Made by a program: the position numbers and the translations under genes. A DNA stretch of 34,642 bases from the NCBI GenBank assembly GCA_028275425.1, contig JAPWUT010000001.1:1-34642 (forward strand), in the 5' to 3' direction. The DNA is from Anaerolineae bacterium. Lineage in GTDB: Bacteria; Chloroflexota; Anaerolineae; SpSt-600. The notes under the pieces are model-generated. The model saw only the letters and a program-made list of their open reading frames with translations, was not told the DNA's origin and made no database searches. Shown piece by piece: positions 3,236 to 34,642 of the stretch. Positions within the stretch are counted from its first letter, which is position 1; each line of letters opens with the position of its first letter.

Positions 3236-4044
3236 AGCTCTACTTCCCCGATAAGCCTGTCCCCCCTGATTCTCCAGCCTATGTAGAGCGCCCTGCCGAC
3301 ATCAAAGCCCGCCATTTGGTCCTCCAAGGCACCCCTGTTTACTTATCAGGTCCTCCGCTGACCGGCAAGACCTCCCTCCTCTTCCGCCTCGGATACCTGC
3401 TTTTAGCCCAAGGCCTTTCCTTCTTTTACCTCAAACTGACCCCAGAACTTGCCCCGAGCGATTTAGAAGCCTTCTTGGAAGATTGCCTCCGAGCTAAGGG
3501 CAATAGCCTAATCGCTATTGATGGCCTTGGGGAAAACGCCGAGGCCTATTTAGATGTACTCAAGCGCTGGCTTTACCGCCACTCCGGCTCTTTTTTAGTG
3601 GTAGCCGAGACTTTCCATCCCTACCCTGGTGAGGTTGCGCCTTTAGTTGAGATATCCCTCAGCTTCTTCTACAAGCCGCACATATTGCAACTGGTAAACC
3701 TCTTAGGCTTAGGCCAGGAAACTGCGGAGGAACTTTACCGCTGGAGCGGGGGCTATCCTTACATTGCCCACAACCTATGTGCAGCTTTAGCCGAGGGCAA
3801 AGAGCTAAAGGAGGCAGTAGAAAACTTCAAGCGGGAAGACCGAAAACTTTTACCACTCCTGAAAGAAGCCCTTTTAAACGTTCCGGAGGCCTCTGAGCTT
3901 TACCGGCGAATCCTGCAAGGCGAGCAAATTCTCCATCGCCGGATTACCCACCTCTTCCGGGAAGCTCCTTCCCTGCGTGGCCTATTCAGGAGCGATGAGA
4001 AGGGCTACGTGCGCCTTTCCTCCCCCATCCTGAGCTCCCTCTAA
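3232..4044 (+). CDS. Small P-loop (AAA-like) ATPase domain protein
   Basis: The track ORF starts at 3130 inside the TPR gene. ATG 3232 overlaps the TPR stop (ATGA, 3232-3235), which suggests coupling. Walker-A-like GPPLTGKTS is present, and a hydrophobic strand ending in D (LIAIDGLG) is Walker-B-like. Confidence 0.6.
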   Translation: MKLYFPDKPVPPDSPAYVERPADIKARHLVLQGTPVYLSGPPLTGKTSLLFRLGYLLLAQGLSFFYLKLTPELAPSDLEAFLEDCLRAKGNSLIAIDGLGENAEAYLDVLKRWLYRHSGSFLVVAETFHPYPGEVAPLVEISLSFFYKPHILQLVNLLGLGQETAEELYRWSGGYPYIAHNLCAALAEGKELKEAVENFKREDRKLLPLLKEALLNVPEASELYRRILQGEQILHRRITHLFREAPSLRGLFRSDEKGYVRLSSPILSSL

Positions 4045-4175: not shown

Positions 4176-4213
4176 AAAATTTGGCGGGGTTCTCCGGAGA
4201 GGTTAACCCCCAA

Positions 4214-5008
4214 AACGTTGGCAAACCCTAAGCCAACGGGGGTGGGCCAAACGGGGGTGGAGGGGGCAGAGCCCCCTCCCAGGGGGCTTGGGGGGTGTCC
4301 CCCCACGAAACCAAAAGAGGGGGCGAGTAGCCCACATTAGCAACCCCGCCACGAGTGGGACCCAGAACGCTGGCGAACCCTCAGCCTACGGGGGTGGGCA
4401 ATGGGGGGTCCAGGGGGGCGGAGCCCCCATGGCGGGGGGCTTGGGGGGTGTCCCCCCACAAATTCAAAAGAGGGAACGAGTCGCCCGCATTAGCAACCCC
4501 GCCCACGAGTGGGACCCAAAACCCTGGCAAACCCTCAGCCCACGGGGTTGGGCAAATGAGGGTCCAGGGGGCGCAAGCCCCATGGCGGGGGGCCGTGGGG
4601 GGTGTCTCCCCACAAAACCAAAATTAGGGGCGAGTTGTCCGCATTAGCAACCCCGCCCACGAGTGGGACCCAAAACCCTGGCAAACCCTCAGCCCACGGG
4701 GGTGGGTAAATGGGGGTCCAGGGGGGGCGAAGCCCCCCTGGCGGGGGCGTGGGGGGTGTCCCCCCACAAAACCAAAAGAGGGGGCGAGTAGCCCGCATTA
4801 GCAACCACGCTACGAGTGGGGCCAAAAACGCTGGCGAACCCTCAGCCCACGGGGGTGGGTAAATGGGGGTCCAGGGGGCGCAAGCCCCCTGGCAGGGGGC
4901 GTGGGGGGTGTCCCCCCACAAACTAAAGGGAGCGAGTAGCCAACCCCGGCAACCCGCCCACGAGTGGGGCCAAAAACGCCGGCGAATCCTAAGCCAACGA
5001 GGGTGGGC
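4214..5008 (+). repeat. Tandem array (about 5 units) of a structured ~153-154-bp repeat (element B)
   Basis: The marker ATTAGCAACC recurs at 4336, 4489, 4643 and 4797, giving a period of 153/154/154. Each unit carries hairpin CCAGGGGGC-GCAA-GCCCCCTGG (perfect at 4871-4892) and hairpin GGGGGG-TGT-CCCCCC. The array starts and ends with the variant ..CCTAAGCCAACG(G/A)GGGTGGG. It fills the space between two convergent genes. Confidence 0.9.
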
Positions 5009-5016
5009 AAAAGAAG

Positions 5017-8258: not shown

Positions 8259-10474
8259 TACCGGGCTCTTGCCTCCTTCAGGAGTTTGTAGACTTTTTCC
8301 TCTGTGGCCGGAAGTTCATCAACCCAAATCCCTACTGCATCGTGGATGGCGTTGATGATGGCCGGGGCAGTAGGCAAAGTGGTCATTTCCCCTATGCCTT
8401 TAGCCCCATACGGCCCAGCGGGGTCGGGAACTTCTACGATGATGGGGACAATTTCCGGAGGCATGTCCAGGACGGTAGGTATTGGGTATTCGCTCAAGCG
8501 GCGGGTGCGGGGGTAGCCGCCTTCGTGGATGAAGTGTTCCATGAGGGCATACCCTATGCCCATGTGGACCCCGCCTCCGATTTGGCCAATTATCATTTCG
8601 GGGTTGACGGCCTTGCCTACGTCGTGGGCAGCCCATATTTTCAGGACCGAGACTTGCCCTGTTTCGGTGTCTACTTCTACCAAAGCTATCTGGGTGCCCC
8701 AGCCGTAGCTGATGTGGGGGAAGCACTCTCCCGTTTCGGGGTGGTAAGGTGTGGTCGGCCGTTCAATTCGCCCTCGGTAGGTGTATTCTACTTCCACGGA
8801 GGTCTCGCCGGTTTCTGCCCTGAGGATTTCTTCCTTTCTGCGCAGGGCCAATTCGCAGGCTGCTTTTACTGCATTGCCGGAGATGTAGACGTGGCGGGAG
8901 GCAGAGGAACTTCCGGCATTAGGGACTTCGGCCGTATCCACTAAGGCAATCCGGACTTTTTGGATTGGGATACCCAGGGTGTGGGCAGCGATTTGAGCTA
9001 AAGCCGTATGCACCCCCTCACCTACCTCGGAGGTCCCGATTTTTACGATGGCCCGCGTTATCTCCCCCGATTCATCCCAAGAAAGCATTACCCTTGCGGT
9101 GGCTTTATCATCAAAGCCGAAGCTGTAGCCGACGTTTTTGAAAGCGCAAGCTACCCCAATTCCCCGCCGTTTATATGGCTCTTTGGGCTGCGGGATTTGA
9201 GGCTTTATCCAGCGTCCGTTCTCTTCCCGCCATCCGGCGGCCAGCGCCGCTTGGCGCAGGGTCTCCTTTATCCCCACTCCTGGCGGGAAAGTGGCCCCGG
9301 TAATGGTGGGCGAGCCGTCCTCCACCAAGTTCTTCATCCTTAACTCCACCGGGTCCATCCCCAAAGCTTCGGCCAACTTGTCCATTTGGATTTCGTAGGC
9401 GAAGGCGGGCTGAGGGGAGCCAAAGCCTCGCATCGCCATCGTCACGGCGTTGTTGGTGTAGACGGTGTAAGCATCAACCTTGACGTTTGGCCATACGTAG
9501 GGGCCAAGGGCGAAGCTGGCGGCATTGTTTAGGACGGGTATGCTGGTTGAGGCGTAGGCACCGGCATCGGAAATCATCTCCACTTCGCCAGCCACAAGTT
9601 TCCCATCTTTCTTGGCCCCCCATTTGTGGCGGATGTAGAAGGGGTGGCGCTTCCCAGTGCGCATCATCGTTTCTTCGCGTGTGAAGACCATTTTCACCGG
9701 CCTGCGCACCACGTAAGCACAGAGGGCCAATAGGTGCTGGATGTACATATCCTCCCTTCCCCCGAAGGCTCCCCCTACTGCCGGCACAATCTCCCTCAGT
9801 TTCTCAATCGGAATCTGGAGGAAGTGGGAAATCTGGTGCAGGTCATCGTGAGGCCATTGGGCAGCTGCAATCACCGTTATGCGTCCCTCTTCATCTATGT
9901 AGCCGATTCCAGCCTCGGGTTGGAGGTAGACATGCTCTACGTGAGGGGTTATGTAGTAACCTTCAACGATGACATCGGCCTCCTCAAAGGCCTTTTCCAC
10001 GTCCCCACGGCGTATCTTTATGTGGTGCAAGATGTTTGTGCCTTTTTCTTCGTGGACCAAGGGGGAGCCTGGCTTCATCGCTTCACGGGGGTCGGTTACG
10101 ACAGGTAAGGGCTCGTATTCAACCTTGACCTTTTTGCGTGCCTCTTCGGCTATTTCTTCCGTCTCAGCCACGACGATGGCTATGCGGTCGCCAAGCCATC
10201 GGACCTTGCCCCCTTCGGGGACTAAGACGGTTTGGTCGGGGGTGTGGATTCCGTACTCGTTGAGGGGTACGTCTTTGTAGGTTATGACTTTGACTACCCC
10301 AGGGGTGGCTTCGGCAGCGGAGGTGTCAATTCTCTTCACCCTGGCGTGTGGGTATTGGCTCCATACGACCTTGGCATAAAGTTGGCCGGGCATGTTGAAA
10401 TCTTGGGGGTAGCGTCTTGAGCCCTGGACTTTGGTCTTTATGTCAAGCCTTATGGTGTTTTCGCCCAGAGTCAT
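8258..10474 (-). CDS. Xanthine dehydrogenase/aldehyde oxidase family molybdopterin-binding large subunit
   Basis: An a/b-hammerhead N-terminus is followed by GGAFGGRED (family motif GGGFGGK-like), GEGVHTALAQIAAHTLGIP and C-terminal AKGIGEMTTLPTAPAIINAI. The start was set to ATG 10474 (MTLGEN..), which is preceded by AAGGAGG. The track start at 10498 would overlap the upstream gene. Confidence 0.85.
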   Translation of the reverse strand: MTLGENTIRLDIKTKVQGSRRYPQDFNMPGQLYAKVVWSQYPHARVKRIDTSAAEATPGVVKVITYKDVPLNEYGIHTPDQTVLVPEGGKVRWLGDRIAIVVAETEEIAEEARKKVKVEYEPLPVVTDPREAMKPGSPLVHEEKGTNILHHIKIRRGDVEKAFEEADVIVEGYYITPHVEHVYLQPEAGIGYIDEEGRITVIAAAQWPHDDLHQISHFLQIPIEKLREIVPAVGGAFGGREDMYIQHLLALCAYVVRRPVKMVFTREETMMRTGKRHPFYIRHKWGAKKDGKLVAGEVEMISDAGAYASTSIPVLNNAASFALGPYVWPNVKVDAYTVYTNNAVTMAMRGFGSPQPAFAYEIQMDKLAEALGMDPVELRMKNLVEDGSPTITGATFPPGVGIKETLRQAALAAGWREENGRWIKPQIPQPKEPYKRRGIGVACAFKNVGYSFGFDDKATARVMLSWDESGEITRAIVKIGTSEVGEGVHTALAQIAAHTLGIPIQKVRIALVDTAEVPNAGSSSASRHVYISGNAVKAACELALRRKEEILRAETGETSVEVEYTYRGRIERPTTPYHPETGECFPHISYGWGTQIALVEVDTETGQVSVLKIWAAHDVGKAVNPEMIIGQIGGGVHMGIGYALMEHFIHEGGYPRTRRLSEYPIPTVLDMPPEIVPIIVEVPDPAGPYGAKGIGEMTTLPTAPAIINAIHDAVGIWVDELPATEEKVYKLLKEARAR

Positions 10475-21701: not shown

Positions 21702-21749
21702 GGCCAATCTCCGCTCGGGAGAGAGACCAGGGGAGAGATTAACCCCCAG

Positions 21750-21934
21750 AACGCTGGCGGACCCTAAGCCCACGGGGGTGGGCAAATGGGGGGTCCAGGG
21801 GGCGCAAGCCCCCTGGCAGGGGGTGTGGGGGATGTGCCCCCAAAACAAAAAGAGGGGGCGAGCCGCCCGCATTATCAACCCCGCCACGAGTGGGGCCCCA
21901 AAACGCTGGCGGACCCTAAGCCAACGAGGGTGGG
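21750..21934 (+). repeat. Single copy of repeat element B plus a terminal partial unit
   Basis: AACGCTGGCGGACCCTAAGCCCACGGGGGTGGGCAAATGGGGGGTCCAGGGGGCGCAAGCCCCCTGGCAGGGGG.. has a perfect GCAA hairpin at 21795-21816. It ends with AACGCTGGCGGACCCTAAGCCAACGAGGGTGGG, as the 4214-5008 array does. It begins about 50 nt after the aor stop. Confidence 0.85.
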
Positions 21935-22027
21935 ATAATTTTCCTAAAATTACCCCCAAGCCTTCGGCTGGATAAAAAGAAAGCGTCGGCGAAAGCCAAC
22001 GCCTGCCAAGAAAACTGATTTAAACCC

Positions 22028-22320: not shown

Positions 22321-22324
22321 AAAG

Positions 22325-22355
22325 CCCGGTTTCCTCCAAGGGAGCCGGGTTTTTT
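22325..22355 (+). terminator. Rho-independent terminator
   Basis: CCCGGTTTCC-TCCAA-GGGAGCCGGG forms a 10-bp stem including two G-U pairs and is followed by TTTTTT, 5 nt after the stop. Confidence 0.75.
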
Positions 22356-22388
22356 AATCCGGTAGTCACTCCTTTAAGTAATGGATGA

Positions 22389-23954
22389 GTGGTTATGCTA
22401 ACTTTACAATGCCAACTGCGCTTTGAGTGCCAAAAGGACCAAGAAGCAGTTTTTCAGCTCATGCACCGCTTCTCCTCCGCTATGCGCTTCGCTTTCCAGC
22501 GCTTCCTTGAGGGAAAGGAGGAGAACGAAGTCCTAAAGGAGCTTTCTTCGCTCTTCAACCTCAACTCCCGCTACGCCTACGGCGCATTGGTAAAGGCTAA
22601 GATGACCATTGCCTCCCAGAAGGAGCTTGGCCAGAGCCCGAAGAAGGTGGTCTTCGGAGGGAGAAAGCTCTTTGAGGAGCTTGCCAGAAAGCACCTTTCC
22701 GGGAAGCGAAGGGATGAGCTTCTCAAGAAGTGGAGGGAGAGAAGGCAAGGCTTGCTTTTCGCCGTGGGCCAGAAGCACGCAAAAGGCAACAAGAACCTGA
22801 GGCTGGTCTGGGTTGATGGCCACCTTTTCCTTCGCATCAACGTTGGGGAAAGGGAATGGGTTTATGCCAAGGTAATCCGAAAAGTGAAACGGGATAGGGA
22901 TAAGTGGAAGGTGCTTTTAGGACGCCTAATGAGGGCGGAAGCTACAGGGGATTGGTTCCCCTACACTGTCACCTTGCGCCGGAAGGAAGGCAAGCTCTAT
23001 GCCTTCATCTCCTTTGAGGAGGAGCTACCTCCGGTTTCAATCACCAAAGCTCAAGGAGTAATAGGGCTTGACCTCAATGCCGTTCCGCAGCATGTGGCCT
23101 GGGCGGAAGCTTCCTCGGATGGGAACTTGGTCTCCCATGGGGCCGTGCCCATCCCCGACCTTTCTGGGAAGCCCAAGAAAGTGCGAGATTACATTCTCTG
23201 GCTTACGGCCTGGCAGGTAGTTCGCCTGGCCAAGGAGAAAAGGAAGGCCATTGCTTTGGAGCGCCTTAAGCGTATGCCTAAAGGAGAGCGTGGGGATGGG
23301 AAGCCAGCCCTTAGGCGTAAGCTTGGAAATTGGGCCTACCGGAGCCTGAGGGAAAAGATTAAGGTTCTGGCCTTGCGGGAAGGGATTGAAGTTGTGGAAG
23401 TGAGCCCGGCTTACACTTCGGTCATAGGGGCATTGAAGTATGCTCCGCAGCACCTACTGGACAAGGACCGGGCAGCGGCTTTGGTGATTGCCAGGCGTGC
23501 CCTGGGGTTTGAAGAGAAGATGCCCAAGCATTACGAACGCTTATTAGGTGACGGAGAATTCCTTGGCTACGCTGTTTCCTATTGGGAAGAGAAGGTTGAA
23601 GAGCTGAGGGCGAGGAAGAGGGAAGAGAGGAACAAGTGGAAGAGGAATGCGGTTCGGGGGAGTTTGGAGAAAGCTAAAAAGTCCCTCCAGCTTCTTAGGG
23701 AAAGTGTGGGTGGCGAGCCGGCTTCCCAAGAGACGGCCAACCGATGGAAGGAGCCGGTGAGGGGCGGGCCTTTGGGCCCGCAAAAAGCTTGGCAAGTCGC
23801 CTATGTAGCCCTCACTGAGCCTCTCCTTGGGAGGTCTCTTAGGGACCTCTCTCCCCTGAGGCCGGTTTTAGTCTTGGGGGATTGGGAGAGGCCGGCGAGA
23901 AGGTTAGCTCCTGACCTGGTCCAGGGGCGGGATTATCAACACTATAGGGGATGA
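22389..23954 (+). CDS. tnpB: TnpB-like (IS200/IS605 OrfB / Cas12-type) RuvC nuclease lacking the zinc-ribbon; solitary, no tnpA
   Basis: RuvC-I VIGLDLN, RuvC-II AIALERL followed by the typical ..LGNWAYRSLREKIKVLALREGIEVVEVSPAYTS.., and RuvC-III DKDRAAALVIARRALG. The only two Cys in the protein are at residues 8 and 14, so no CxxC..CxxC exists between YTS and RuvC-III. About 150 aa of poorly protein-like tail follows. An alternative ATG start lies at 22395. Confidence 0.7.
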   Translation: MVMLTLQCQLRFECQKDQEAVFQLMHRFSSAMRFAFQRFLEGKEENEVLKELSSLFNLNSRYAYGALVKAKMTIASQKELGQSPKKVVFGGRKLFEELARKHLSGKRRDELLKKWRERRQGLLFAVGQKHAKGNKNLRLVWVDGHLFLRINVGEREWVYAKVIRKVKRDRDKWKVLLGRLMRAEATGDWFPYTVTLRRKEGKLYAFISFEEELPPVSITKAQGVIGLDLNAVPQHVAWAEASSDGNLVSHGAVPIPDLSGKPKKVRDYILWLTAWQVVRLAKEKRKAIALERLKRMPKGERGDGKPALRRKLGNWAYRSLREKIKVLALREGIEVVEVSPAYTSVIGALKYAPQHLLDKDRAAALVIARRALGFEEKMPKHYERLLGDGEFLGYAVSYWEEKVEELRARKREERNKWKRNAVRGSLEKAKKSLQLLRESVGGEPASQETANRWKEPVRGGPLGPQKAWQVAYVALTEPLLGRSLRDLSPLRPVLVLGDWERPARRLAPDLVQGRDYQHYRG

Positions 23955-23985
23955 CCAGGTTTAATCCTCAAGGAGGAGGAAAACA

Positions 23986-25035
23986 ATGGCTGAGAAGATG
24001 AGAGCTCTCCTCAAAAAGAAGCCAGGCCCTGGCTTGGAAATGGATTTGGTCGATATACCCCATCCCGGCCCGAACGAAATCCTGGTAAAGGTGCGGGCTA
24101 CATCCATCTGTGGAACCGATGTGCACATATACAAGTGGGATGCCTGGGCTCAAAGCCGCATAAAACCACCTCTAATCATAGGCCATGAGTTCTGCGGAGA
24201 AGTGGTGGAAGTAGGGAAAGAAGTCAAAAGCATCAAAGTAGGAGATTTCATCTCCGCCGAAAGCCACATCCCCGATTACACCTGCCCGGTCTGCCGCAAG
24301 GGACAACCCCACATCTGCCAAAACCTCAAAATCCTCGGAGTTGATACCAACGGCTCCTTCGCCGAATACGTGGTTATACCCGAAATATGCGCCTGGAAGA
24401 GTGACCCTAACCTGGACCCAGCCATAGCTTCCATCCAGGAGCCTCTGGGGAATGCCGTTTACGCCGTTCTGGCTGAGCCGATTTCAGGTAAAACGGTGGC
24501 AGTTTTTGGCGATGGGCCAGCAGGGAACAATGCTGTAGCAGTGGCTAAGGCGGCGGGAGCAGGCACAATCTTCCAAATAGGTAAGCACCGCTCTCGCCTG
24601 GAAATTGGCCGGAAGATGGGAGCTGATTTCTCCATAAATGTTGCCGAAGGGCAGGACCCAGTTAAAATAATACTGGAAAAGACCGAAGGCGTTGGAGTGG
24701 ATGTGGTCCTGGAGATGGCCGGAAGCCAGCAGGCTTTGGAGCAAGGATTTGCCGTTTTACGCAAAGGAGGCAGGTTCACCGCTTTCGGTATACCTTCGGA
24801 TAAGGTCTCTCTGGATTGGGCCAATGCCCTAATCTTCAAAGGGGCCCACGTAATCGGGATAAACGGCCGCCTCATGTGGGAAACTTGGTACCAAATGGCC
24901 GAACTGCTTAAATCGGGCAAGCTTGACCCCTCGCCTATAATCACCCACAAAATACCGTTGGACAACTTTGAAGAAGGCTTCCGCTTGCTGACTTCGCCGG
25001 AAAGGGACGTGGGGAAAGTGGTAATGTTCCCTTAA
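23986..25035 (+). CDS. tdh: L-threonine 3-dehydrogenase (Zn-dependent MDR family)
   Basis: Contains ..ILVKVRATSICGTDVHIYKWD..GHEFCGEVVEVG.., a structural-Zn Cys cluster CPVCRKGQPHIC, and Rossmann VFGDGPAG. RBS AAGGAGGAGG. Confidence 0.85.
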   Translation: MAEKMRALLKKKPGPGLEMDLVDIPHPGPNEILVKVRATSICGTDVHIYKWDAWAQSRIKPPLIIGHEFCGEVVEVGKEVKSIKVGDFISAESHIPDYTCPVCRKGQPHICQNLKILGVDTNGSFAEYVVIPEICAWKSDPNLDPAIASIQEPLGNAVYAVLAEPISGKTVAVFGDGPAGNNAVAVAKAAGAGTIFQIGKHRSRLEIGRKMGADFSINVAEGQDPVKIILEKTEGVGVDVVLEMAGSQQALEQGFAVLRKGGRFTAFGIPSDKVSLDWANALIFKGAHVIGINGRLMWETWYQMAELLKSGKLDPSPIITHKIPLDNFEEGFRLLTSPERDVGKVVMFP

Positions 25036-28471: not shown

Positions 28472-28669
28472 AGTCCACCTCTGGAAGACTCCGCTTACTT
28501 TTTAAGTTTACCTCAGAGCTTACGAAGTGCGCAAATGCTAATAATTCGCCGGTATGTTCGTTCCCTCTTCTCGCTCACGTGGGTGGTCTTAAGCGATTTC
28601 CTATCCCAGTTGGGCTGGGGGTTAAGTCGCAAGGGGGTACGGATTTTGCCTTGTGAGCTAAAAATTAAA

Positions 28670-28741
28670 TTCGGGGGCCAGGATTCGAACCTGGACCGAG
28701 GGATCCAAAGTCCCTTGTCCTGCCCATTAGACGACCCCCGA
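28670..28741 (-). tRNA. tRNA-Gln (anticodon UUG), CCA not encoded
   Basis: The minus strand reads TCGGGGG TC GTCTAATGGGCAGGAC A AGGGA-CTTTGGA-TCCCT .. CCAGG-TTCGAAT-CCTGG CCCCCGA A. It has a 7-bp acceptor stem with U1-A72 (typical of bacterial tRNA-Gln), a GGTTCGAATCC T-arm and anticodon loop CU-UUG-GA. Confidence 0.9.
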
Positions 28742-28751
28742 ATGCACTTTT

Positions 28752-28780
28752 ATTATAGCATCAATCGGCGAAGGAAGCAA
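28752..28780 (-). promoter_or_regulatory. Putative promoter of tRNA-Gln
   Basis: The minus strand reads TTGCTT, a 17-nt spacer, then TATAAT. The -10 ends about 10 nt before the mature tRNA 5' end. Confidence 0.5.
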
Positions 28781-28852
28781 GAGCTTAGAGCACTTGCGCC
28801 ACTTTCCCCCCTCGTTGGGGGGGGCAGGCTTATGAGCTATGCACCTCGGAAA

Positions 28853-28881
28853 TTGACGGGATGGGTTTGGCATGATAAAAT
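28853..28881 (+). promoter_or_regulatory. Putative promoter (extended -10) of upp
   Basis: TTGACG, a 17-nt spacer (ending in the TGa of the extended -10), then TAAAAT, about 25 nt upstream of ATG 28907. Confidence 0.5.
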
Positions 28882-28906
28882 GGAAAAAATCTTAAGGAGG
28901 GGAAAA

Positions 28907-29560
28907 ATGGGTCAGGTTTATGTCTCCAATCATCCGCTGGTCCAGCACAAGCTGACCATATTGAGGGACATAAACACTGAGCCGAAGCGCTTCCGGGAGC
29001 TTCTTAGGGAAATAACTTGGCTCCTCCTCTATGAAGCCACCAGGGACCTCGCAGTGGAAGAGAAGCAAGTGACCACCCCCTTAGGGACAGCGGTTGGGGT
29101 CCAGCTTACCGAAGATATAGCCTTCTGCCCCATCTTGAGGGCCGGCCTCGGCATGATAGAGCCGGCTTTGGAATTAATCCCAGGAGCTCAGGTCTGGCAC
29201 ATAGGGATTTATCGGGACCACAAGACCCTCAAGCCCATTGAGTATTACACAAGCCTTCCGAAGAAAGCCACTGCCCAGGTGGCCATAATCCTGGACCCGA
29301 TGTTAGCCACAGGGGGGTCGGCTGTGATGGCCGGCACTCTCCTCAAGGGCATTGGGGTCCCGAGGATAAAATTTGTGGGGATAATAGCGGCTCCGGAAGG
29401 GTTAGAAAAGCTTCGCAATTCCCATCCGGACATAGACGTCTTTGTGGCGGCGGTGGACAAATACCTCACCCCCGAACCTCAGAAGCCGGGGGACCCGCCG
29501 GCCGGGTACATCGTTCCAGGCCTTGGTGATGCCGGAGACCGCCAGTTCGGCACAAGCTAA
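28907..29560 (+). CDS. upp: Uracil phosphoribosyltransferase
   Basis: MGQVYVSNHPLVQHKLTILRD.., the PRPP loop ILDPMLATGGSA, and C-terminal GLGDAGDRQFGT. The start ATG has RBS AAGGAGGGG. The track ORF start at 28535 runs across the tRNA and is rejected. Confidence 0.92.
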   Translation: MGQVYVSNHPLVQHKLTILRDINTEPKRFRELLREITWLLLYEATRDLAVEEKQVTTPLGTAVGVQLTEDIAFCPILRAGLGMIEPALELIPGAQVWHIGIYRDHKTLKPIEYYTSLPKKATAQVAIILDPMLATGGSAVMAGTLLKGIGVPRIKFVGIIAAPEGLEKLRNSHPDIDVFVAAVDKYLTPEPQKPGDPPAGYIVPGLGDAGDRQFGTS

Positions 29561-29667: not shown

Positions 29668-30117
29668 TTGCCATGCTACTGCCTTGGGTTCTTGGCCTTG
29701 GCCTTCGCTCCACCGCGTAAGCCCATATCCACCCCCATAATATGGCCTTCTCCTATCCCTACCTTCACCCCTACCTCCACCTCCAGCCCTACCCCCACTT
29801 TTACCCTAATCCCAACCCCTACTCAGCGGCCTCCCTTCCCTACCTTTACCCCTACGAAAACTGCTACCCCAACCTTTACCCCAACTCAGACTTTCACCCC
29901 CACTCCTACCGAAACCATCACCCCAACCCTTACACCCACTCCAACCGGAACTTTTACCCCCACCCCTACCGAGACCTTCACCCCTACGCCTACCGAGACG
30001 TTAACCCCTACTCCTACTGAAACCTTCACGCCTACCCCTACCGAGACTTTTACCCCGGCCCCTCCAGAAACCCTTACCCCCTCTCCTACCGCAACTTCTA
30101 CCGGGCTCAAGCCATAA
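29668..30117 (+). CDS. Pro/Thr-rich repeat protein with N-terminal hydrophobic anchor (start uncertain)
   Basis: A hydrophobic N-terminus is followed by about 120 aa of PT-rich sequence ending in 8-aa repeats TPTPTETF/L. The repeat codons vary synonymously, which argues for selection at the protein level. The frame is open from 29569. Confidence 0.5.
29896..30090 (+). repeat. 24-bp (8-codon) tandem repeats encoding TPTPTETx
   Basis: ACCCCCACCCCTACCGAGACCTTC / ACCCCTACGCCTACCGAGACGTTA / ACCCCTACTCCTACTGAAACCTTC / ACGCCTACCCCTACCGAGACTTTT ... Confidence 0.8.
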
Positions 30118-30651: not shown

Positions 30652-33600
30652 ATGGCTCTGCTCTTATTGCCTTTAGTCTTTTCGTTTGGAAGTTTTGCCG
30701 CGCTGGCCTTTGCCCTTCGCTTCTATCGGCATGATAGGAAAGCTTTAACTCGCCGGAAGCAAAAGTTTGAAGTCCCCTTGCGTTTTGAATTCAATTCCAT
30801 CCCGAACCTTATCGCTTTAATCTCCCTGTTTACCTCCTTTCTGCCCGCTCCTTCCTTGCCTGCACAAGCTTCTCAGCCGCTTGATGAATCTTTGCCTTCT
30901 TATCCTGCAAACATCACTCCTACCCCGAAAACTTGTTCCAACTTCTGCCCTCTCCCCAACAACCTTTTGAGCGATGAAAGCCATCACTCAATCACAAGTA
31001 TCACCGTCACCGGTCCATCCGCGCCGATAAACAACTGCGACGTGGTCACCTTCACCATCGTCGCTGTTAACGATACCGTCACCACCACCAATGTCATCAT
31101 CACCAGCACGATGCCCGCTGGCTTTGAGCCCACCGAGCCGGTGGTCTTCAAAGTCGACACCGTTGAGCCCGGCGAAGTCATCACCCGCTATGCCGTCTTC
31201 TCCGCCACCTGCTCCGCTGTCTCCGGACAGAACGTGGTCACCCTCACCCAGGATGGTGGCCCCACAATTGTCAAGTACACCGATTTTGTGGTCAACCCCG
31301 GCGCCATCACCGTCCGCAAGGAGCCGGCTGTTATCAAAGCCGCGCCCGATGAAGTGGTCACCTGGACCGTCTACATTGAGAACACCGGCTACGGCAATGT
31401 CTACAACGTCCGGGTGACTGACACGCTGGGGAGCGGCCTCCAGTACGTCTCTGGCCTCACCTCTGCCTACGTCATCTCCATCCCCGTCGGCGGGGTAGTC
31501 ACCTTCCCCATCGCCGCCCGCGTCGTCGGCTGCTCAAACCTGGAGAACGTGGTCACCGCCACCTGGGGCTGCAACGGCCAGATGTGCCTGACCCCTCAGA
31601 CGGCCAAAGGGGCGGTGGACCTGGAGATGCGTAACCCTGTCCTGAAGTTCTCTCTGCCCGCTTTCAATGTCACGTATTGCGACGGCTACGGCGTCTTCAC
31701 CATCCCCATCACCAACACCGGCGACGGCACGGCCTACTCCGGGACGCTGGCGGTGGACCTCTCGCCCTTCAATGTGAGCGTCGCCCCGCCTGCTTCCTAC
31801 TCCTCCGGCGCATTCTATCTGCCGCCTATCCCGCCCGGCCAGACCTACAACCTGGTCTTCACCCTGACCCTCCCCTCCGCAGTCTGCACGATGCCCCGCA
31901 GCGGCACCTTCAACTTTGACCTGACCTACTATGACCGCTGCGGCGACCTGTATACCGAACTCCCCCAGTCCGCCTCCTGGAATCTGGTGAACGCGCCGGG
32001 TCAGTTGAGCGTGAGCAAGTCCATGCCCCGCGAAGTCTATCGGGGCGAGAACGTCGCCGCCACGATTACGGTGAACGCCAGCGGCATCAGCGGCACGGTC
32101 GTTGTCACCGACCAGGTGCCGGCGGGATGGAGCGTGGTGAACGCCGCCGGGGGCAATGTTTTCACCGTGGGCGGCGTCACCTACATCACCTGGACGCTGA
32201 CCGGCACCGCGACCCTCAACCCGGTCTTCGCCACCCCCGATGCTGCCACCGGCTGCGCCTACTGCGGCACCGCCGCCACCAACATCGTCACCGCTACCGC
32301 CTCCGACTGCCAGAACTGCCTCCAGGCCGCCACCGACCAGGCCACAACCTACATTCAGTGCCACGAGCCGGTGGCCACGACCTCCAAGCAGGTCTCCGGT
32401 CCCGCCGAGACCTGCACCGACCCGGCCTATACCTACACCAACACCTACCATTTTGCTGGGACCTTCATAGTGACTCCGACCTGGCAGGGGATGGTCTTCA
32501 CCGAGACGCTCCCCTATCAGACCTACGTCACGGGCAGCGCATCGGTCTGGATGAGCGATGGCTCTATTACCTGCACCGCCGCGTTCTCTGCAGATGTGGT
32601 GGGCGGAAGGCTGGTCATCTCCAACATCTCCCCCACCTGCCCTATCACCGTCCCCGGCGCCACGATGTGGATTTCCTACCAGACGGCGGTGGGCGAACCG
32701 GCCCGCTGCTCCGACTTTGAGTGGTACGACTGGTCTTATCTGAACCTGGGGGTGACGGGCAACGCCGAATGCGCCGCCGACGGCGTGATTGAAGAGGGCG
32801 TCTTCGTGCAGACCCTGGCCCCGGCGATGAGCCTGAGCCTCTCCGGTCTGCCGCCCAACGTCTCCTCCTGCGGGGTCTACACGGTGACCCTGACGGCTCA
32901 GCGCAGTTCCTCCGTCCCGGCCTATGATGTTGTTGTGGATGTGCCCACGTCCACGTATGCTGTTTTAGACGTCCTTGGCTTCTCCGGCGCCACGCCGATC
33001 TACACCGAAACGGACTCCCTCGGCTACCACTGGTATTACTCGGATACTTTTGCCACCGCCACCACCGGCACAGTCCAGTTGCGGGTGCAATTGCGCTGCG
33101 GGAGCGGCACCGCGCCCTTCCAGGGCACGCTCCACTACGACAACCGCTGCGCCGACGACTCGACCTACCAGAAGCAGTGCAGCACTGGCGGCACGCTGGG
33201 CTCGCCGCCCGTGGTCCAGCCTCTGCCTATCATGACCAAGTTCCCCGAAGTCATCTACGCCCACGGGGACGTGGTCACCTGGACGCTCATCGCCTACAAC
33301 TCCGGCGCCGGCCCGGCCTACAGCGTCGTCCTCACCGACCTCCTGGGCAGCGGTCTGCGCTACGAGGATTCGTCCATCACTTCCACCCAGGGCTCCGTGG
33401 CCGGGGTGACCCCCATCACCTCCTCCAACCTGGTCACCTGGAACTTGCCGGTTATCCAGCCCAAGGAAAAGGTCACCATCCAGTACGTCGCCGAGATTAT
33501 CGGCTGTGCGGACCTGACCAACCGCTTTGCCGGTGTGCAGGGATGCCTGGGCCAGACCTGCCAATCGGGTGGGCCGGTGTTTTCCCGTGTGGAAATTCCG

Positions 33601-34642
33601 CCCGCCATCCTCCTCAACACCAACCAGGCGGTGACGCCCATTGACACCTGCTACACTCGCACCGTCACGGTAACGGTGAAGAACGCCGGTCTCCTCAGCG
33701 TCTACTCCGCCACCCTCACCGAGACCCTGCCGACGGGCCTGTCCTATGTGACAAACACCACCCAGGTGAGCACCGACACGGTGAACTGGCAGGCCGGGCC
33801 GAACCCAACCATCAGCGGGCAGGACCTCATCTGGGGCCCGGAGAGCGGTGAGCCGCTCAATACGCTCCTTTCCCGCATCCGCCCCGGCGAGACGGTCTAC
33901 CTGCGCTACGACGTCTACGCCTCCTGCCCGTTTGCGGGCGGGCAACTGCGCATCCAGACCGGCTACCGGGATACCTGCGGGACTCCTTACCTCACCGAGG
34001 CGTCCTACTTCATTATGCCGGTCCGCACGGCGAACCTTTCCATCGTGAAGGTGGGGGAGAACCTGAGCCGGACCTCTCCGTCTCCTGAGATGATTTACGC
34101 CGAGCCGGGGGAGACGGTAGTCTTTACCATCACCGTCTCCAACCCCGGCAGCGCCGCCCCGGCCCACGAGGTAGTGGTGACCGATACCCTGCCAGGCAAC
34201 CTGGTCTTCCAGGGCGCCACCCCCGGCTACACCGGTCCCGCGCCCGGCTCTCTGGGCGGGGTGGTCACCTGGACCTTTGACATCATCACGCCGGCCACGT
34301 CCGTCGTCCTGACCGTCACCACTGTGGTCAGTCAGCCGGAAGGGTGTACGGTCACCGACACCGTCAACGCCGCCGAGGTCTCCTGGGGTTGCCCCGACGG
34401 CTGCCGCCAGAGCGCCCGCTCCGACCGGGTCATCCTGCGCACCCGGCCGGTCTATCAGCCCCCTGTCATCCAGACCGACATCCCACCCGCCACTCTCCAC
34501 CAGTGCGGCGGCCAAATCACCGTCACGCTGAACAACCAGGGTCCGCCCGCCTACAACGTGACCCTCACCGACACCCTGCCCTCCGGCTATGCCTACAGCG
34601 GGACGGTCGGGGCCAGCACGCCACCCTCCGGTACGGTGGACC
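30652..34642 (+). CDS. Very large DUF11 (conserved repeat domain) surface protein with N-terminal TM anchor; 3' end off-window
   Basis: My by-eye codon-by-codon translation found no in-frame stop from ATG 30652 (RBS AAGGGGG) to the window end, at least 1330 codons. The frame was confirmed arithmetically at two checkpoints (31321 and 34141), and DUF11-type motifs recur throughout. The ORF is not in the track because no stop is reached. Repeated DUF11-type blocks include VVTWTVYIENTGYGNVYNVRVTDTLGSGLQYVSG, VVTWTLIAYNSGAGPAYSVVLTDLLGSGLRYEDSS, TVVFTITVSNPGSAAPAHEVVVTDTLPGNLVF and QITVTLNNQGPPAYNVTLTDTLPSGYAY. Third codon positions are strongly C/G. Confidence 0.85.
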   Translation, partial: MALLLLPLVFSFGSFAALAFALRFYRHDRKALTRRKQKFEVPLRFEFNSIPNLIALISLFTSFLPAPSLPAQASQPLDESLPSYPANITPTPKTCSNFCPLPNNLLSDESHHSITSITVTGPSAPINNCDVVTFTIVAVNDTVTTTNVIITSTMPAGFEPTEPVVFKVDTVEPGEVITRYAVFSATCSAVSGQNVVTLTQDGGPTIVKYTDFVVNPGAITVRKEPAVIKAAPDEVVTWTVYIENTGYGNVYNVRVTDTLGSGLQYVSGLTSAYVISIPVGGVVTFPIAARVVGCSNLENVVTATWGCNGQMCLTPQTAKGAVDLEMRNPVLKFSLPAFNVTYCDGYGVFTIPITNTGDGTAYSGTLAVDLSPFNVSVAPPASYSSGAFYLPPIPPGQTYNLVFTLTLPSAVCTMPRSGTFNFDLTYYDRCGDLYTELPQSASWNLVNAPGQLSVSKSMPREVYRGENVAATITVNASGISGTVVVTDQVPAGWSVVNAAGGNVFTVGGVTYITWTLTGTATLNPVFATPDAATGCAYCGTAATNIVTATASDCQNCLQAATDQATTYIQCHEPVATTSKQVSGPAETCTDPAYTYTNTYHFAGTFIVTPTWQGMVFTETLPYQTYVTGSASVWMSDGSITCTAAFSADVVGGRLVISNISPTCPITVPGATMWISYQTAVGEPARCSDFEWYDWSYLNLGVTGNAECAADGVIEEGVFVQTLAPAMSLSLSGLPPNVSSCGVYTVTLTAQRSSSVPAYDVVVDVPTSTYAVLDVLGFSGATPIYTETDSLGYHWYYSDTFATATTGTVQLRVQLRCGSGTAPFQGTLHYDNRCADDSTYQKQCSTGGTLGSPPVVQPLPIMTKFPEVIYAHGDVVTWTLIAYNSGAGPAYSVVLTDLLGSGLRYEDSSITSTQGSVAGVTPITSSNLVTWNLPVIQPKEKVTIQYVAEIIGCADLTNRFAGVQGCLGQTCQSGGPVFSRVEIPPAILLNTNQAVTPIDTCYTRTVTVTVKNAGLLSVYSATLTETLPTGLSYVTNTTQVSTDTVNWQAGPNPTISGQDLIWGPESGEPLNTLLSRIRPGETVYLRYDVYASCPFAGGQLRIQTGYRDTCGTPYLTEASYFIMPVRTANLSIVKVGENLSRTSPSPEMIYAEPGETVVFTITVSNPGSAAPAHEVVVTDTLPGNLVFQGATPGYTGPAPGSLGGVVTWTFDIITPATSVVLTVTTVVSQPEGCTVTDTVNAAEVSWGCPDGCRQSARSDRVILRTRPVYQPPVIQTDIPPATLHQCGGQITVTLNNQGPPAYNVTLTDTLPSGYAYSGTVGASTPPSGTVD

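Follow-up and report, generated by a model that had tools for sequence, protein, structure and literature searches.

The stretch of DNA considered here (the window) comprises 34,642 nucleotides of the Anaerolineae bacterium contig JAPWUT010000001.1 (assembly GCA_028275425.1), most of which is ordinary housekeeping DNA of an anaerobe and thermophile, with genes for an aldehyde:ferredoxin oxidoreductase, Hdr-like and molybdenum cofactor (MoCo) enzymes, Era, tdh and ptb. Between a hairpin followed by a T-run (22323-22350) and the ribosome-binding site (RBS) of tdh (23970, with the ATG at 23986) lies a tnpB-like open reading frame (ORF), open without interruption on the plus strand from 22389 to 23954 and encoding 521 amino acids if read from the GTG at 22389; the true start is probably the ATG at 22395, giving 519 amino acids, because the N-termini of the homologues read MLTLQC or MITLQC and the database copy of the protein (P0001) has 519 residues. 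This gene is the single protein-coding gene of an insertion sequence of 1,599 bp (22361-23959), and no second conserved gene was found in the element, since no other frame is consistently open across its copies. Within the 34.6-kb window neither a tnpA, nor a cas gene, nor a CRISPR array was found, and the left-end (LE) and right-end (RE) motifs of the element occur once each; a 516-aa ORF at 32965-34515, considered as a possible second copy, is unrelated to the tnpB-like ORF and was rejected. An earlier note, made from the sequence alone, had described a solitary gene between an upstream terminator and the tdh RBS, with an intact RuvC triad, no zinc finger, no tnpA and no CRISPR array. All of this holds (the triad is D228-E291-D360, and the only cysteines are residues 8 and 14), except that the word solitary is right for the absence of tnpA and wrong otherwise, since relatives of the element carry a serine recombinase of the IS607 family.

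Fold, catalytic site and clade of the protein

The ORF is not a chance reading frame, because it passes the cut-offs of two NCBIfam models, TIGR01765 (N-terminal domain, residues 5-80; 57.0 bits against 47.25) and TIGR01766 (TnpB-related domain, residues 264-344; 56.8 bits against 32), has 957 homologues, and yields a confident AlphaFold2 model that matches nucleases. The model, built on 62 homologues, has a predicted local distance difference test score (pLDDT) of 83 and a predicted template modelling score (pTM) of 0.73, confidence being low only at residues 441-462 and 506-521. In the Foldseek comparison with the Protein Data Bank (PDB), ranks 1-27 (E up to 2.6e-4) are exclusively RNA-guided nucleases, and the Tex protein follows at rank 28 (E 3.2e-4); the best matches are AsCas12f (E 3e-10, 463 aligned columns), Cas12k, Cas12g and the TnpB proteins of ISDra2 and ISFba1. 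Matches in the viral structure library are TnpB/Fanzor-type 'transposases'.

The window protein is thus a genuine TnpB-superfamily protein, with the WED-REC-RuvC architecture and a canonical D-E-D site (Table 1). The glutamate of the family motif AIAIEkL is aligned with E324 of AsCas12f (TIQMEDL) in the profile-PDB alignment, and the RuvC-III motif DKDRAAALVIARRALG holds, together with D360, the aspartate D358 (23460-62, the pair spanning 23460-68); D358 is invariant and D360 nearly invariant (at least 90%) among the 62 sequences, and both are invariant in an alignment of 17 sequences. After RuvC-III, the model adds a helical hairpin (residues 389-440) and a C-terminal segment. Whether the databases already cover this protein, a question that had been left open, can be answered in the affirmative: besides the two NCBIfam models, the precomputed annotation of every homologue is PF27229 'SSO2105_N' (Pfam gives only a weak PF07282 fragment on the window protein itself), the RefSeq name of the relatives is 'IS200/IS605 family accessory protein TnpB-related protein', as for TT_RS10885 of Thermus thermophilus HB27 pTT27 (strain HB8 has relatives on a plasmid too), and the literature holds the clade RIIIr-4 described below.

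In ISDra2 TnpB, a 33-residue CCCC zinc finger, the target nucleic acid-binding (TNB) domain, is found at the position equivalent to the 13-residue VIGALKYAPQHLL of the window protein (PMC10097598); the latter region is modelled as part of a single helix (residues 343-355). The helical hairpin and the C-terminal segment (residues 464-505) are candidates for the structure that takes the place of the TNB. The CxxC..CxxC signature is missing from all 200 full-length relatives, that is, from 118 close homologues and from 82 distant cluster representatives of at least 380 aa, in answer to the earlier question of whether the loss is clade-wide. A profile search of 1.84 billion representatives returned 249 clusters with E no higher than 1e-30, a number that grows to 1,715 when the limit is set at 1e-10. 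The RuvC-III residue is Asp in 107 of 108 members of the close clade (DKD) and His in 47 of 54 distant relatives; the distant members P0136-P0253 have mostly the RuvC-III His, in the form L-S-x-H-x-A-A-A, and many are without the C-terminal extension of ~150 aa of the window clade. Loss of the zinc finger is known in some TnpB branches (PMC10691335), and RIIIr-4, a major TnpB clade, is defined by the absence of the C4 zinc finger together with the replacement of the RuvC-III Asp by His (Altae-Tran et al., PNAS 2023; PMC10691335). The window protein shows the former feature and lacks the latter, as D360 is kept. The zinc-finger loss is lineage-wide and already on record.

A covarying RNA structure at the 3′ end of the gene

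In the codon alignment of 61 ORFs, synonymous differences fall from ~0.29 along the gene to 0.11-0.15 in the last ~80 codons (~240 nt), while amino-acid differences in these codons remain high (0.22-0.29). For 33 diverse 3′ ends, RNAalifold predicted 30 base pairs, 17 of them with compensatory changes, and 24 of the predicted pairs were taken into a recount controlled by shuffles and by sliding the partners. Standard pairs occupy 96.1% of the cells in these 24 pairs against 78.0% in the shuffles, 158 cells are changed on both sides against 44.9, and the covariation score is 0.607 against 0.228, a value of 0.607 being reached in 0 of 500 shuffles; with the partners slid, the score drops to 0.09-0.16. 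The minimum free energy (MFE) z-score of the 3′ RNA is -3.8, and no Rfam match was found either at the gathering threshold or at E up to 10. The RNA structure is specific to the sense strand, because many of its pairs are invariant or frequent G-U pairs.

The hairpin loop near the 3′ end and the terminus of the element covary across subfamilies, in the combinations CCUGGU/ACCAGG, CCAGGUCA/UGACCUGG or UGAUCUGG, GAGGCUG/CAGCCUC and GAGGUUG/CAACCUC. A pseudoknot formed by the 3′-terminal nucleotides of the scaffold beside the guide is a conserved hallmark of the guide RNAs of TnpB, Fanzor2 and Cas12 (PMC10097598, PMC10711439). An RNA guide is likely for the window protein, because the covarying scaffold and the pseudoknot end exactly at the right end of the element, and this agrees with the membership in an RNA-guided nuclease lineage that had been proposed earlier. 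The flank from 23960 would be the guide of read-through transcripts. We infer that the RNA is produced and bound by the protein, and that it guides the latter in cutting DNA.

Ends, ancestry and mobility of the element

The limits of the element follow from comparison with other copies. DNA likeness among copies in other contexts extends from 22361 (GGTAGTCACTCC...) to 23959 (...CACTATAGGGGATGACCAGG, the right end being also given as ...GGGGANGACCAGG), 5 bases beyond the stop codon. A copy with 87% identity lies between rsfS and lysW, another with 79% identity between trmO and a gene of the glycosyltransferase-3 family (PF02885/PF00591), and relatives of 79-92% identity are placed in different gene neighbourhoods. 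A scan of species-representative genomes gave 80 loci, in Aquificota, Thermus, Meiothermus, Ammonifex, Caldanaerobacter, Thermoanaerobacter, Pseudothermotoga, Calescibacterium and several archaeal metagenome-assembled genomes, and many genomes, including those of Aquificota, Thermus, Ammonifex and Thermoanaerobacter, carry multiple copies; in an all-against-all blastn comparison of the loci, the shared DNA always stops 5-12 nt past the stop codon. Comparison of the window copy with eight relatives over codons 1-430 gave a ratio of nonsynonymous to synonymous substitution rates (dN/dS) of 0.10-0.16, which shows that purifying selection acts on the ORF as a mobile gene. The insertion also occurs, identical and at the same site, in an independent assembly (L109, whose contig breaks inside the element). 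An empty site was sought through the neighbouring proteins: the exact sequence of the zinc-ribbon protein gave no record, and the tdh look-up gave only the insertion in L109; from the 8-bp repeat described below, the empty allele would read ...GGGTTTTTTAATCCTCAAGGAGG....

The element is live, mobile and not domesticated. The suggestion of the earlier note that it might be domesticated is contradicted by the unrelated neighbourhoods, the target duplications, the many copies per genome and the purifying selection as a mobile gene. Where it had seen no obvious terminal hairpins, the 3′ end is a highly structured and conserved RNA, and the ends of the element are definable and accompanied by an 8-bp flanking repeat.

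In several more distant relatives (L018, L041 and L065), the shared DNA reaches ~600 bp further upstream and includes an ORF of ~200 aa that overlaps the start of the tnpB-like gene and scores 198-231 bits on NF033518, 'IS607 family transposase' (cut-off 110). The ancestral state is an IS607-type element, because these tnpA-bearing members are scattered over the family tree, and the window copy is a tnpA-less derivative. The left ends of the tnpA-bearing relatives read GGAGGTT(G/A)NCAACAGTTGA and the right ends ...ACCAGG, and no flanking duplication is found at them. GG is present at the crossover sites and ends of IS607 elements (PMC10711439), and also at both ends of the window element (GGTAGTC...GACCAGG). 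Two marks by which IS607 elements are recognised are missing from the window copy, namely a serine-recombinase TnpA (with a MerR-like helix-turn-helix (HTH) and a resolvase domain) within the element, and the lack of inverted repeats and of target duplication; affiliation with IS200/IS605 elements (IS1341 group) is not indicated either, as the autonomous relatives have a serine recombinase and not a Y1 (HUH) TnpA, and no conserved motif stands in the left flank, where that family has a fixed target/transposon-adjacent motif of 4-5 nt besides the subterminal DNA hairpins of the element. The proteins P0111, P0113 and P0066 bear an N-terminal extension (MKFRGVKECKAIYSLCRKALVNYEKKGPIKPL...) which looks like the MerR-type HTH of an IS607 TnpA fused in frame, as if the catalytic domain of the recombinase had been deleted.

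Both ends of the window copy are abutted by the 8-mer TTTAATCC (22353-60 and 23960-67). In the window's own subfamily, studied at 24 metagenomic loci, the termini are imperfectly inverted and flanking repeats of 8-11 bp occur at at least 8 other independent insertions, which are flanked by AATCTTTC, TGGGCTCCG, GGCTGAGG, ATAGGAGG, AAATGGGG, TAATTTTGG, TAGTTTTGCA and AGAAGCTTG. In a second tnpA-less clade (Thermocrinis, Calescibacterium, Caldipriscus) the element ends in a perfect 17-bp inverted terminal repeat, GAGGCTGTTCTAAAAAT ... ATTTTTAGAACAGCCTC, and direct repeats of 9-12 bp flank five full-length Thermocrinis-type copies; the two duplication-making sublineages are separate clades. Of the 80 loci, 21 repeat 8 nt or more of their right flank at the left junction, against a mean of 3.7 and a maximum of 9 in 200 flank permutations, and the matches abut LE. 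IS200/IS605 and IS607 elements have been described as having neither terminal inverted repeats (TIRs) nor target-site duplications (TSDs) (PMC6188088, PMC13565253), and the occurrence of inverted termini, duplications of 8-12 bp and derivatives resembling miniature inverted-repeat transposable elements (MITEs) in the two tnpA-less sublineages appears to be undescribed.

Such MITE-like elements, bearing the Thermocrinis-type 17-bp inverted termini, measure 180 bp (L042, 2783-2962) and 306 bp (L052, 2534-2839). At L042, the MITE stands in place of the left terminus of the TnpB element, and a 9-bp duplication flanks the 1,808-bp composite. In three further Thermocrinis-type copies (L036, L048 and L050), the left ends are short by ~9, 10 and 30 nt, and are abutted all the same by 9-, 8- and 12-bp copies of the right flank, that of L050 corresponding to the 3′ end of a tRNA gene. 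These shortened left ends with intact repeats are hard to reconcile with ordinary two-ended cut-and-paste; speculatively, the truncations could come from the element's own guide, self-targeting the left copy of the repeat.

Copies of the window subfamily tend to lie directly before an RBS and start codon and to point the same way as the gene that follows, as in the window (23960-23990) and in the right flanks of L085, L087, L091, L099, L103 and L108. The predicted guide would therefore cover the translation-initiation region of the downstream gene. This siting could mean that the element prefers to insert at such places, that harmless sites were selected, or that the downstream gene is expressed by read-through.

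Table 1. Positions of the tnpB-like gene, its catalytic residues, the RNA features and the termini of the element (residue numbers refer to the 521-aa reading).
Feature	Position	Strand	Remarks
Left copy of 8-bp direct repeat TTTAATCC	22353-22360	.	Overlaps the U-tract end of the upstream gene's terminator
Left end (LE) GGTAGTCACTCCTTTAAGTAATGGATGAGTGGTT	22361-22394	+	Starts with GG; imperfect inverted match to the right end
tnpB-like ORF	22395-23954	+	Sole conserved ORF of the element; dN/dS, family models, fold match
RuvC-I Asp D228, GLDLN	23070-23072	+	Invariant in 62/62 homologues; model beta-strand 224-231
RuvC-II Glu E291, AIALERL	23259-23261	+	Invariant (62 homologues); aligns to AsCas12f E324
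13-residue VIGALKYAPQHLL at the usual place of the TNB zinc finger	23421-23459	+	Between PAYTS and RuvC-III; no Cys
RuvC-III Asp D360, DKDRAAALVIARR	23466-23468	+	N-terminus of model helix 359-371
Omega-RNA-like scaffold	23710-23959	+	Overlaps the last ~80 codons; ends on the element's last base
Long-range helix	23808-23904	+	23808-23827 pairs with 23884-23904; encloses inner hairpin 23829-23854
Hairpin with loop CCUGGUC (23915-23921)	23907-23928	+	Loop complementary to the element's last 7 nt (23953-23959, GACCAGG)
Right terminus GACCAGG	23953-23959	+	Ends with GG; 3′ strand of the pseudoknot; last bases common to other copies
Right TTTAATCC copy (23960-67) and next flank, predicted guide segment	23960-23979	+	Runs into the tdh RBS

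Elsewhere in the window, a GC-rich repeat of ~154 nt (CCCAAAACGCTGGCAAACCCTCAGCCCACGGGGGTGGGCAAATGGGGG...) forms a tandem array of 5.3 copies (4209-5011) and a remnant of 1.3 copies (21744-21939) upstream of the zinc-ribbon gene. Both orientations of this repeat family are met in L003, the metagenomic locus of the 79%-identical TnpB-like copy (230-1082, 3692-3856 and 9397-9638), and the organism of that locus shares this lineage-specific intergenic repeat with the window. The head-to-tail arrangement of the copies, without unique spacers between them, sets the family apart from CRISPR arrays. Degenerate tandem repeats with periods of 18, 24 and 48 (CCTACCCCCACC..., ACCCCTACCGA...) at 29752-30102 would encode a Thr/Pro-rich linker in the ORF 29668-30117. 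A tRNA-Gln(UUG) on the minus strand (28669-28742) lies inside the 5′ part of the called ORF 28535-29560, and the real start of upp is probably downstream of the tRNA, because the uracil phosphoribosyltransferase (UPRTase) domain of this ORF begins only at residue 130. The G+C content at 31000-34642 is 63-65%, against ~55% elsewhere, and the long minus-strand ORFs of this region (31534-32451 and 32965-34515), which have no Pfam match, may lie on the wrong strand of a gene that was not annotated, or may be foreign DNA.

Competing explanations and relation to known systems

With a probability of about 0.7, the segment 22361-23959 is a complete and apparently functional tnpA-less insertion sequence of an IS607-related, zinc-finger-less TnpB lineage, whose protein is an RNA-guided nuclease. 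The last ~240 nt of the gene would double as the scaffold of an omega-RNA, or right-element RNA (reRNA), in which the hairpin loop and the final 7 nt would form a pseudoknot, a transcript continuing past the right end would gain the flank from 23960 as its guide, and the resulting RNA-guided DNA endonuclease would serve the maintenance and spread of the element itself; this usual TnpB function is the most likely one. The ancestors would have been moved by the IS607 serine recombinase, leaving no duplication, whereas the window sublineage leaves duplications of 8-11 bp, for which a transposase acting in trans would be the most conservative account.

Several points weigh against this explanation. 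The score on NF040570 guided_TnpB ('RNA-guided endonuclease TnpB family') is 60.2 bits, under the cut-off of 100 bits, and literature searches found no experimental work on the zinc-finger-less lineage. The TNB adjoins the RuvC site in every solved TnpB or Cas12f, so the chemistry of cleavage or the substrate could differ in this protein. Regarding the RNA, the window subfamily is without the terminal hairpin present in other subfamilies, and no sigma-70-like promoter was found in the element by a scan that is uninformative for a thermophile. A conserved motif resembling a transposon-adjacent motif (TAM) is not evident left of the insertions, where the only regularity concerns position -2, which holds a pyrimidine at all 9 window-type sites and C at all 9 Thermocrinis-type sites. 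Finally, the flanking duplications fit no TnpB, IS605 or IS607 mechanism.

Different readings can be given of these duplications. The element may be a non-autonomous passenger, that is, an IS607-derived module of tnpB and omega-RNA which has acquired inverted termini recognised by an unlinked DDE-type transposase, the latter moving it in trans and producing the duplications, a reading that we hold as possible at somewhat below even odds; the TnpB protein and its RNA would still constitute an RNA-guided nuclease, so that it refines the part of the preferred explanation concerned with movement and is compatible with the rest. The inverted termini (perfect over 17 bp in the Thermocrinis type and imperfect in the window type), the duplications and the MITE-like derivatives all speak for it, and there are precedents, as DDE-associated TnpBs have inverted terminal repeats and solo TnpBs have been inferred to be mobilized in trans (PMC10691335), and cut-and-paste transposons that have TIRs and TSDs have taken up Fanzor2 (PMC10711439). 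Nevertheless, no DDE transposase, nor a transposase-bearing sister element with these termini, was found in the ~0.6 Mb of loci examined or in the window, and when viral contigs were scanned for GAGRCTGTTCTAAAAAT, in order to find a transposase carried by an element with this TIR, the 22 hits were all single and unpaired, which is judged to be about chance level. Moreover, the length of the duplications varies by 3-4 bp inside one subfamily, and the copies with shortened left ends retain intact repeats. The right terminus shares its ancestry with the right end of IS607-type elements and is under the constraint of the RNA pseudoknot, so that the termini give the impression of having arisen where they are, and not of having been borrowed.

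Another idea is that, in the tnpA-less sublineages, the TnpB-like protein acts, alone or with the RNA, as transposase or insertion nuclease, performing or directing the insertion. Staggered cuts by the RuvC domain (an RNase H fold with a D-E-D site), followed by fill-in, would give duplications of variable length (8-12 bp) as well as the copies with a shortened left end and intact repeats, and the 3′ structure would be mainly the recognised transposon end. The tnpB-like gene is the sole conserved ORF in ~40 copies of the two sublineages, both of these separate clades evolved inverted termini and similar, variable duplications, the MITE-like derivatives of L042 and L052 bear both termini, and the shortened left ends with an abutting repeat at L036, L048 and L050 are odd for a two-ended DDE reaction; in addition, TnpB is reported to cleave 21 nt away from the TAM on the target strand and 15-21 nt away on the non-target strand (PMC10097598). 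On the other hand, no TnpB has ever been shown to transpose DNA, the protein being dispensable in IS608 and IS607 transposition (PMC13565253, PMC6188088), the protein of the duplication-making clades is not visibly unlike that of the tnpA-bearing relatives, the fold search gives only guide-RNA nucleases and no transposases, and no link was found between the right flank of one copy and the left flank of another. Nothing in the data supports this idea directly, and it is considered unlikely. Guide-directed insertion was rejected for want of support, the flank comparisons being negative and the sampling thin: the left flank of one copy has no meaningful match of at least 10 nt in the right flanks of other copies, and the 7-mers common among right flanks number 14, against 13 in the control.

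The remaining readings concern the fate of the element. That it is a decaying relic, the pseudogene of a dead element still open by chance, would be in line with two short in-frame deletions relative to the closest relatives, in the disordered linker around residues 441-462, and with the loss of the 14-nt terminal hairpin of the L003 type. The full-length ORF, which aligns with its homologues end to end, its dN/dS and the identical copy at the same site in L109 make this quite improbable, all the more so as the deletion of the hairpin marks the window-type subfamily as a whole, many insertions of which are recent and have their duplications intact. Least credible of all is a domesticated, host-serving derivative (a TldR-like regulator or similar) fixed between the terminator and tdh; the absence of tnpA, the position directly upstream of tdh in the same orientation, and the several relatives also placed just upstream of gene starts could be cited in its favour, but the catalytic triad is intact and conserved, the locus is not (the 87%- and 79%-identical relatives having other neighbours), and flanking duplications, defined ends and many copies per genome characterize the element.

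As far as searched, the novelty lies in the exact anatomy of the element, the covarying omega-RNA with its pseudoknot for this lineage, the retention of the RuvC-III Asp in the window clade, and the TIR, TSD and MITE behaviour of the two sublineages. TnpB is the ancestor of Cas12 and a compact scaffold for genome editing. A thermophile lineage devoid of the TNB domain, with the D-E-D site and a delimited scaffold, makes possible a direct test of the role of this domain, and could provide zinc-independent, heat-stable editors; the role in question is listed as unclear by the classification paper (PMC10691335). What matters more, for transposon biology, is that tnpB-only elements derived from IS607 show inverted termini, duplications of 8-12 bp and MITE-like derivatives, none of which is described for IS605 or IS607 elements. 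The duplications would reflect a process in prokaryotes that parallels the uptake of Fanzor genes into cut-and-paste transposons or, with lower likelihood, the participation of a TnpB-family protein in insertion, and in this last case a TnpA-independent, TnpB-driven mode of transposition; if neither reading holds, the window element is one more mobile TnpB copy of a catalogued clade.

Regarding the known systems, the closest parallel in the protein is RIIIr-4 (PMC10691335), a large TnpB lineage without the C4 zinc finger between RuvC-II and RuvC-III, whose clade signature is the RuvC-III His of the distant relatives; the close clade of the window differs in keeping Asp at this position and in being tied to the IS607 serine recombinase, whereas the partner mentioned for RIIIr-4 is MazE/RHH (ribbon-helix-helix). 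With IS607 elements and their TnpB and reRNA, such as ISXfa1 (Yoon et al., NAR 2023, PMC10711439; Chen et al., eLife 2018, PMC6188088), the lineage shares the TnpA directly upstream of, and overlapping, the tnpB-like gene in the relatives, the GG ends, and the 3′ RNA scaffold with a pseudoknot involving the terminal nucleotides; the window copy departs from them in lacking tnpA and having imperfect inverted termini with an 8-bp duplication, and its protein in the absence of the zinc finger and in the C-terminal extension of ~150 aa. The likeness to ISDra2 TnpB and Cas12f (8exa, 7wju, 8dzj) extends to the WED-REC-RuvC architecture, the D-E-D site with the Glu in its canonical position, and a pseudoknotted guide-RNA scaffold overlapping or following the gene, but identity is only 11-15%, the TNB is absent, the helical hairpin 389-440 and the C-terminal segment are additional, and, as compared with ISDra2, the partner of the lineage is a serine recombinase and not a Y1 transposase. 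The branches DDE-1 to DDE-6 of TnpB and Fanzor2* (PMC10691335, PMC10711439) offer the parallel of elements that have inverted termini and target duplications and contain a TnpB-family gene together with its RNA, with solo copies presumed to be mobilized in trans; in contrast, all of the ~40 copies considered here are without a linked DDE transposase, the termini are apparently IS607-derived and prokaryotic thermophiles serve as hosts. TldR and other nuclease-dead domesticated TnpBs (Wiegand et al., PMC10705468) are, like the window protein, TnpB-derived and without tnpA, but TldR has lost RuvC residues and has a fixed host context, while the window protein keeps its catalytic triad and is mobile.

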